From positions 1 to 16,506 of the IMG/VR virus record IMGVR_UViG_2728369593_000027: DNA of 16,506 bases; one strand, written 5' to 3'. The DNA is from a virus (taxonomy: Duplodnaviria; Heunggongvirae; Uroviricota; Caudoviricetes). The notes below the pieces were generated by a model. It worked only from the letters and a program-made list of their open reading frames with translations, was not told the origin of the DNA and made no database searches. This document shows, one piece after another, positions 6,917 to 7,929 of the stretch (position 1 is its first letter; each line of letters starts with the position of its first letter). Position numbers and translations under genes: made by a program.

Positions 6917-7929
6917 AAAGGTGAAAACCGGCAGTTCATCCAGTAAGTCAGTATTGACCTGGCTTGCTGATATGTGCGGTGCCGATTTGTGTGCATACCC
7001 GTCTGTATCTGCACTGGCAGAAGTAACGGAACTGAACAAAAAGACTGTGCAGGACAGCTTACGACACCTGATGGAGATTGGGTTAATTGTTGATACCGGT
7101 GAGAGAAAAAGGCCGGACAAAACAAATTGTGGTGTACCGACTTATCGGTGTTGAAGAAAGTGTTACCGAGGATGAATACACCCAAAAACGGGAGTCTTTA
7201 AAGGTAGGTAAAATTGGTACTGTTAATAAAAACAGAACCGAAAACGGTTATGTTTCAGCACAAAACAGCCCCAAAAACGGAACTCTTTGCTGCATGGAAA
7301 ATAACCAAAGACACCCAAATTTTCCATCAAAGACACCCAAAAACGGATCACGGAACCCAAAGGAACCCAAAGATTTAAACCCCACACATAACGCACGCGA
7401 GAGTGCTCCGACCAGTGAGCAGGAAGTTTTGTCGTTACAGGCAGTCCCCCCCGTATTCCTGGATGGCCTGAGCGAACCCATCGGAAAATTTCCGATGACC
7501 GATAACTGGTATCCGTCACGGGATTTTCGACGACGGGCTGCGTTGTGGGGGATGGCTTTGCCGGAGACAGAATTCACACCTGCTGAACTTGCCGCATTCC
7601 GGGACTACTGGGCAGCGGAGGGGAAAGTGTTTACGCAGGTTCAGTGGGAGCAGAAATTCGCCCGTCACGTAAATCACGTCAGGGCGCAGGTTAAACCAGT
7701 CAGCAAGGGGGTAAACCATGCAGCAGCACCAGGTGGAACCGCATCACGGGCAGTTCAGGAAATTCGGGCAGCACGTGAGCAGTGGGAACGTGAAAACGGA
7801 TTTATCAGCGACGGAAACGGCCTGGAAGCTGTGGGAGCTCATGGGGGAGGTTTATTCGAACCGCTGGACCCAGAAGAACGGGGCCGCACCTTCGAAGCTC
7901 TGGATTGCACAGATTGGCGCGATGACTGA
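6888..7929 (+). pseudogene. Lambda-O-like replication initiator (N-terminal HTH domain), apparently frameshifted at an A5 run
   Basis: ATG at 6888 (MSIDALRWAKKV...) gives an HTH-type N-terminus. That frame stops at 7152-7154, while the downstream frame opens at 7087 (track ORF 7087..7929, TTG-initiated, no ATG until far inside). Deleting one A from AAAAA at 7106-7110 joins the frames as ...LIVDTGERKGRTKQIVVYRLIG.... Confidence 0.55.
7235..7375. repeat. Iteron-like direct repeats inside the initiator gene (candidate replication origin)
   Basis: Directly visible repeats: AAAACGG three times (7239-7248, 7270-7280, 7335-7346 contexts); CAAAGACACCCAAA twice (7306-7319, 7328-7341); tandem GGAACCCAAAG twice (7351-7372). 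They encode a low-complexity linker (SPKNG...TPKNGSRNPKEPK). Confidence 0.45.

Follow-up and report, generated by a model that had tools for sequence, protein, structure and literature searches.

The replication region of the lambdoid prophage in the window (the whole stretch of DNA analysed, 16,506 nt) raises a question about its initiator gene, which is split between two reading frames: is the gene broken in the strain, is it divided or recoded in normal expression, or was it misread in the deposited sequence? A look-up with a fragment of the broken prophage exonuclease gene led to one contig, AKYH01000091.1 (66.6 kb), of draft assembly GCA_001605745.1; reverse-complemented, this contig matches the window with 100% identity over 13,543 shared bases. 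The prophage adjoins ompW, and the host flank is closest to that of EPEC O127:H6 E2348/69. A literature search by assembly and WGS accession gave no match.

A split initiator gene and its intact relatives

The 5' part of the gene, from ATG 6888, is an 88-codon ORF that stops at TGA 7152–7154, and the remainder lies in the +1 frame, in an ORF spanning 7087 to 7929. Removal of one A from the AAAAA at 7106–7110 gives a continuous ORF of 1041 nt, encoding 346 aa. These frames, the stop, the exact homopolymer and the identity of the gene as a replication initiator had all been given in a preliminary description of the sequence, and all of them are correct. Specifically, codons 1–74 are followed by 14 out-of-frame codons (RPDKTNCGVPTYRC) before the TGA, and in the frame of ATG 6888 the window reads GGT GAG AGA AAA AGG CCG around the lesion. 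As deposited, the initiator ORF is not a continuous one of about 346 codons, and the window copy is a frameshifted member of its family. The truncated product is predicted to keep the putative helix-turn-helix (HTH) and to lose everything after residue 74, including the DnaT-like domain. The first ATG of the 3' ORF does not occur before 7294, and the native reading of this ORF starts in the middle of a domain. The features are collected in Table 1.

Table 1. Features of the window that bear on the split initiator gene
Feature	Position	Strand	Remarks
Prophage exonuclease gene	1422–3897	−	YdfE_N/YdfE_C/Rv2179c-like; 823 aa, intact in all references
YdaT/CII-like gene	6365–6916	+	Intact; overlaps initiator start by 29 nt
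Initiator, 5' fragment	6888–7154	+	Codons 1–74 native (putative HTH region), from translation and homologue alignment
Initiator, 3' part in +1 frame	7087–7929	+	Native reading from 7111; DnaT-like C-terminal domain at about 7489–7689
A5 run, frameshift site	7106–7110	+	A4 in every homologue examined
AAA-AGG-C, zero frame	7107–7113	+	Created by the extra A; codon phase from sequence
Iteron-like direct repeats in initiator gene	7175–7371	+	From repeat search; downstream of the frameshift
Private T-to-C substitution	7452	+	CCT to CCC, synonymous; C6T becomes C7
Lambda-P-like helicase loader	7922–8383	+	Pfam Phage_lambda_P, 61 bits; PHROG 109 'P-like helicase loader'

The gene encodes the replication initiator of a lambdoid prophage integrated at ompW; the protein has a putative N-terminal HTH domain and a C-terminal DnaT-like domain. 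In the 5' fragment, Pfam HTH_36 aligns at residues 36–67 with 24 bits, just under the cut-off of 25, and the RP-C N-terminal domain (Pfam) matches residues 31–75; in the intact protein HTH_36 scores 20.9 bits, also below the cut-off of 25. The 3' part matches Pfam DnaT (PF17948) with 63 bits against a cut-off of 25, and the C-terminal domain of DnaT has its counterpart in residues 197–267 of the intact protein (PDB 6AEP/4OU6, E-values of 6e-19 to ~1e-18). PHROG 1032 'replication initiation protein' matches the intact protein over residues 1–298 with an E-value of 4e-92. The gene sits between the cro/CII-like genes and the lambda-P-like helicase loader, and the order is the same in all relatives. 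The exact YdaT/CII-like protein encoded just upstream is present on many contigs. Lambda O domains (Phage_rep_O and the lambda O C-terminal domain) have no Pfam match in either fragment or in the intact protein. Because no O domain was found, the initiator falls outside the lambda O family, yet it works like lambda O.

Iteron-like direct repeats lie in the linker-coding part of the gene, between the regions encoding the two domains. They comprise four copies of AAnACACCCAAAAACGG at 7175–7346, followed by the shorter CAAAGACACCCAAA and GGAACCCAAA up to 7371. By analogy with ori-lambda, which lies inside O, these repeats are presumed to be the origin of the prophage. A single-sequence AlphaFold2 model of the intact protein has a mean pLDDT of 39.5 and is too unreliable to use; the same low-confidence model hints at a β-hairpin (residues 64–74/77–85) with the frameshift at its tip.

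The region is present in 1254 of 5426 complete E. coli genomes (megablast). In those genomes it holds one gene of 1041 nt and 346 aa, annotated as 'DnaT-like ssDNA-binding domain-containing protein', with a YdaT-family gene annotated before it and 'replication protein P' after it. Alignment with intact homologues reveals exactly one indel within the gene, A5 in the window versus A4 in the homologues. Upon deletion of one A, the encoded protein is 100% identical to WP_000020574.1, the homologue of O103:H2 12009. The frameshift together with the identity of the repaired protein is no chance pattern.

A 48-mer carrying A5, designed so that every 28-mer in it spans GAAAAAG, has no match in the 5426 complete E. 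coli genomes. The control 48-mer carrying A4 matches 966 places in 887 complete E. coli genomes, and none of these 966 homologous places has A5. Exact-pattern scans with a 24-mer carrying A5 found it absent from GTDB species representatives, IMG/VR and JGI metagenome contigs, and all 34 related loci that were fetched have A4. An exact-product look-up of the 88-aa fragment gave no match, a negative of no weight because neither gene fragment is recorded even for the source contig AKYH01000091.1. The A5 allele is private; it is therefore no conserved recoding site, no phase-variable tract and no boundary between two natural genes.

This distribution decides on two readings in which the split would be natural. 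That a small HTH protein and a DnaT-like protein are encoded by two naturally separate genes is hardly credible. Nothing beyond the ORF map of the window speaks for it; in all relatives a single gene of 1041 nt spans the same stretch, and the late ATG of the 3' ORF and its native reading from mid-domain count against it as well. The preliminary description had proposed comparison with intact homologues as a check and had held that two separate genes in related prophages would count against a frameshift; in the relatives, A4 lies within a single gene for 346 aa, so the frameshift reading holds. The homologues rule out two natural genes. A programmed +1 ribosomal frameshift, or a phase-variable homopolymer, that regulates initiator synthesis has an equally negligible probability. 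The sequence AAA-AGG-C at the lesion does have the form of the known +1 sites CCC-AGG-C (rpoB) and CUU-AGG-C (Ty1), but this motif owes its existence to the private insertion alone and is not conserved, the in-frame A4 being found at 966 of 966 places and 34 of 34 fetched loci. With four to five A, the run is also shorter than phase variation or transcriptional slippage would usefully need. The absence of A5 from any relative effectively rules out both programmed recoding and phase variation.

Other than the extra A, the gene has one private change. Private differences between 4845 and 12162 of the window were judged against at least 19 near-identical loci; the substitution at 7452 is the only one besides the extra A, and both lie in the initiator gene. 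A 49-mer with the C7 allele has no match in complete E. coli genomes, GTDB representatives or metagenomes, and no second carrier or intermediate lineage of A5 or C7 was found in GTDB representatives, IMG/VR or JGI metagenomes. The closest prophage relative, in CP148363.1, is ~99.97% identical over 12 kb, with three substitutions relative to window positions 3900–16132. It carries a different frameshift in the initiator gene, a one-base deletion in the C-run at window positions 7446–7452, and its copy is marked as frameshifted and a pseudogene by PGAP. CP014752.1 also has a C-run deletion in the initiator gene, plus a one-base deletion in the G-run at 7843. The deletions in these two genomes may be long-read homopolymer errors or may reflect recurrent knockout of the initiator gene.

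Private insertions along the source contig

The extra A is one of several similar changes in the same assembly. Over ~23.6 kb of the contig there are seven private 1-nt insertions and no private 1-nt deletions: four insertions in the prophage exonuclease gene, one in the initiator gene, one in kch and one in cls. Of these, five extend a run that is already there, and two lie outside runs. That all seven indels are insertions suggests a systematic technical bias.

The four exonuclease insertions, at 2898–2902, 3562, 3575 and 3768, break the gene into at least three ORFs. All 3485 genomes that cover the exonuclease segment in full have four bases fewer. A dense patch of private substitutions lies in the same gene, at 3747–3874.

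The two insertions in the host flank affect conserved single-copy genes. kch is split by a T-to-TT insertion (L032 18336, ~4.8 kb left of window position 1), which is absent from all 5426 complete E. coli genomes. cls, which encodes cardiolipin synthase, is split by a G4-to-G5 insertion (L032 19942, ~6.4 kb left of the window), which is absent from all 4752 genomes that match its site. Compared with E2348/69, the 7.1-kb host flank is ~0.1% diverged, with six substitutions and these two frameshifting insertions. One frameshift per three substitutions in core genes is beyond what natural divergence gives. In the same flank comparison, the tonB repeat region (L032 16872) has a 6-nt in-frame difference from E2348/69, which looks like natural variation in repeat length.

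The extra A is likely a base-calling or assembly error of the draft assembly GCA_001605745.1. The allele is confined to one assembly and absent from all independent sequences, and the assembly has an excess of similar indels that extends to conserved single-copy genes. The private insertions in kch and cls are the main reason for distrusting the indels of GCA_001605745.1. In the proposed course of events, the assembly of AKYH01000091.1 would be insertion-prone, because the flank has two frameshifts against six substitutions and the indels run in one direction; A5 would be one among its errors; and the change from A4 to A5 would shift the frame after codon 74 in the deposited sequence, while the gene in the living strain would probably be the intact 346-aa ORF. 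We infer that the private insertions on the contig are technical. The preliminary description had left the choice between an inactivating mutation and a homopolymer sequencing error; that pair of readings is supported, and the added evidence favours the second.

The error in the initiator gene is inferred, and a real mutation stays conceivable. Several observations fit poorly with an artefact. Four of the insertions fall within 870 bp of the exonuclease gene, beside the patch of private substitutions, whereas a uniform error rate predicts otherwise; this cluster could stem from genuine decay or from a multi-copy prophage segment that was collapsed. The change from A4 to A5 affects a short run and is no classic long-homopolymer error, and the 9.4 kb from 7111 to 16506 contain no private indel. 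Prophage genes do decay, and the frameshift in CP148363.1 makes a real, recurrent inactivation conceivable.

A genuine, very recent, strain-private +1 insertion that inactivates the initiator is accordingly a reading to be weighed, although we consider it unlikely. The product would end without the distal portion of the DNA-binding domain and without any of the DnaT-like domain, and the change would probably be polar on the P-like loader. Replication of the prophage would then depend on complementation by a second lambdoid prophage in the same cell. E. coli is well known to harbour defective lambdoid prophages whose replication genes are broken, and a co-resident prophage can rescue them (PMC2669165). 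The frameshift stands in the deposited sequence, the broken exonuclease gene of the same prophage fits a decaying element, and the close relatives in CP148363.1 and CP014752.1 carry frameshifts of their own in the initiator gene; the gene has only one further private change, hence the event would be recent. On the other hand, cls and kch on this contig also carry private +1 insertions, shared by no other genome, seven of seven private indels are insertions, and A5 occurs in no collection searched. The repaired protein is also identical to the wild type, so there has been no drift after the supposed inactivation. A mismatch-repair-deficient (mutator) strain, as a source of many indels, is unlikely as well: all seven are insertions, two of them lie outside runs, and the flank has only six substitutions relative to E2348/69. 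An error in the assembly remains the preferred explanation of the extra A.

Whether artefact or real, the event is ordinary, the gene and the kind of prophage are both known, and little of biological weight depends on it. If it is an artefact, GCA_001605745.1 contains insertion errors, and its apparent pseudogenes (cls, kch, the exonuclease gene and the initiator gene) are no sign of gene loss or of a defective prophage. A real insertion would be a further example of a well-known form of decay, the recent knockout of a lambdoid-prophage replication gene, here in a strain resembling EPEC; its one small peculiarity would be that the mutated sequence is shaped like a self-suppressing +1 slippage site.

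The slippage motif and the downstream loader

AAA is a slippery Lys codon, and AGG is the rarest codon in E. coli. At the motif created by the extra A, the P-site codon AAA (7107–7109) can re-pair with AAA (7108–7110) while AGG occupies the A site, as read from the sequence alone. If the insertion is real, a +1 slip by tRNA-Lys could place GGC next and restore the exact wild-type ...GERKGRT.... In E. coli rpoB, +1 slippage on CCC-AGG-C suppresses a +1-nt frameshift with 5% efficiency: ribosomes stall at the rare AGG codon, and the tRNA in the P site shifts its pairing downstream by one base (PMC7022156). The +1 slippage site of Ty1 is CUU-AGG-C (PMC7022156). There is a slim chance that the extra A is real and the knockout leaky, with wild-type 346-aa initiator made by a +1 slip, perhaps at the percent level. 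Replication of the prophage would then be attenuated and not abolished, and the locus would be a natural self-suppressing frameshift mutation like that on CCC-AGG-C in rpoB (5%). The prophage-encoded tRNA-Arg(UCU) and tRNA-Arg(UCG) may shorten any pause at AGG.

The start of the P-like gene annotated by PGAP, ATG 7922, overlaps the initiator stop (ATGACTGA, 7922–7929). Expression of the P-like loader is probably coupled to translation of the initiator, and, because of this overlap, P expression would probably fall too if the frameshift is real. Upstream, the P-like ORF has no stop as far back as ATG 7718, and a long form starting there would overlap the initiator gene by 212 nt (7718–7929). 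In the long ORF, the PHROG 109 alignment begins at residue 19. The overlap has 14 variable sites, and nine of them are third positions of initiator codons, an argument for the short start at 7922 over the long start at 7718. The size of the P-like protein differs by gene caller (140, 153, 180 or 221 aa).

The prophage has further cargo downstream. Three tRNA genes at 15755–16004, downstream of a DNA methyltransferase gene, have a CAT anticodon, Arg(UCG) and Arg(UCU); the CAT-anticodon tRNA is called Met by ARAGORN and tRNA-Ile in annotations of relatives. Rare-codon tRNAs of such a set are typical of lambdoid STEC/EPEC prophages. The prophage also carries a paa gene (AcfC-family adhesin) at window positions 10022–10780, and just upstream of it (~9300–9900), according to annotations of relatives, is a fimbrial-protein pseudogene with a conserved frameshift.

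Comparison with known systems

An intact HTH plus DnaT-like initiator upstream of a lambda-P-like loader is known in ompW-type lambdoid prophages. The gene for WP_000020574.1, found in the O103:H2 12009 prophage at rspB and in many STEC/EPEC prophages, is 99.8% identical in nucleotide sequence over the gene and has the same neighbours as in the window, namely cro, the YdaT/CII-like gene, the P-like loader and DUF1627. It has A4 in place of the window's A5 and CCT in place of CCC, and its 346-aa ORF is continuous.

The arrangement of lambda O and ori-lambda, used here as an analogy (PMC5509034), resembles the window in three respects: an N-terminal DNA-binding domain, putative in the window's initiator; iterons within the initiator's own coding sequence; and a P-family loader immediately downstream. 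Unlike in lambda O, the C-terminal half here is DnaT-like, and PHROG 'O-like' families match the N-terminus weakly. E. coli DnaT (primosomal protein I) shares with the initiator the C-terminal ssDNA-binding domain alone; the N-terminus of the phage protein is a putative HTH region of its own, and the linker carries the iterons.

A protein with HTH_36 and DnaT_C encoded upstream of a lambda-P-like protein is the pattern of DopC/DopE and their phage relatives (Brezellec et al. 2017, PMC5509034), with which the window shares the two-gene architecture and, with HTH_36 as a putative match, the domain pair. DopC is a domesticated chromosomal gene, reported without iterons (PMC5509034), whereas the gene in the window lies in a prophage and has iteron-like repeats.

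The lesion itself is comparable to the rpoB site CCC-AGG-C (Huseby et al. 2020): both have a one-base insertion and a re-pairable P-site codon before AGG, followed by C. The P-site codon here is AAA, slippage is predicted, and the insertion itself may not exist in the strain.
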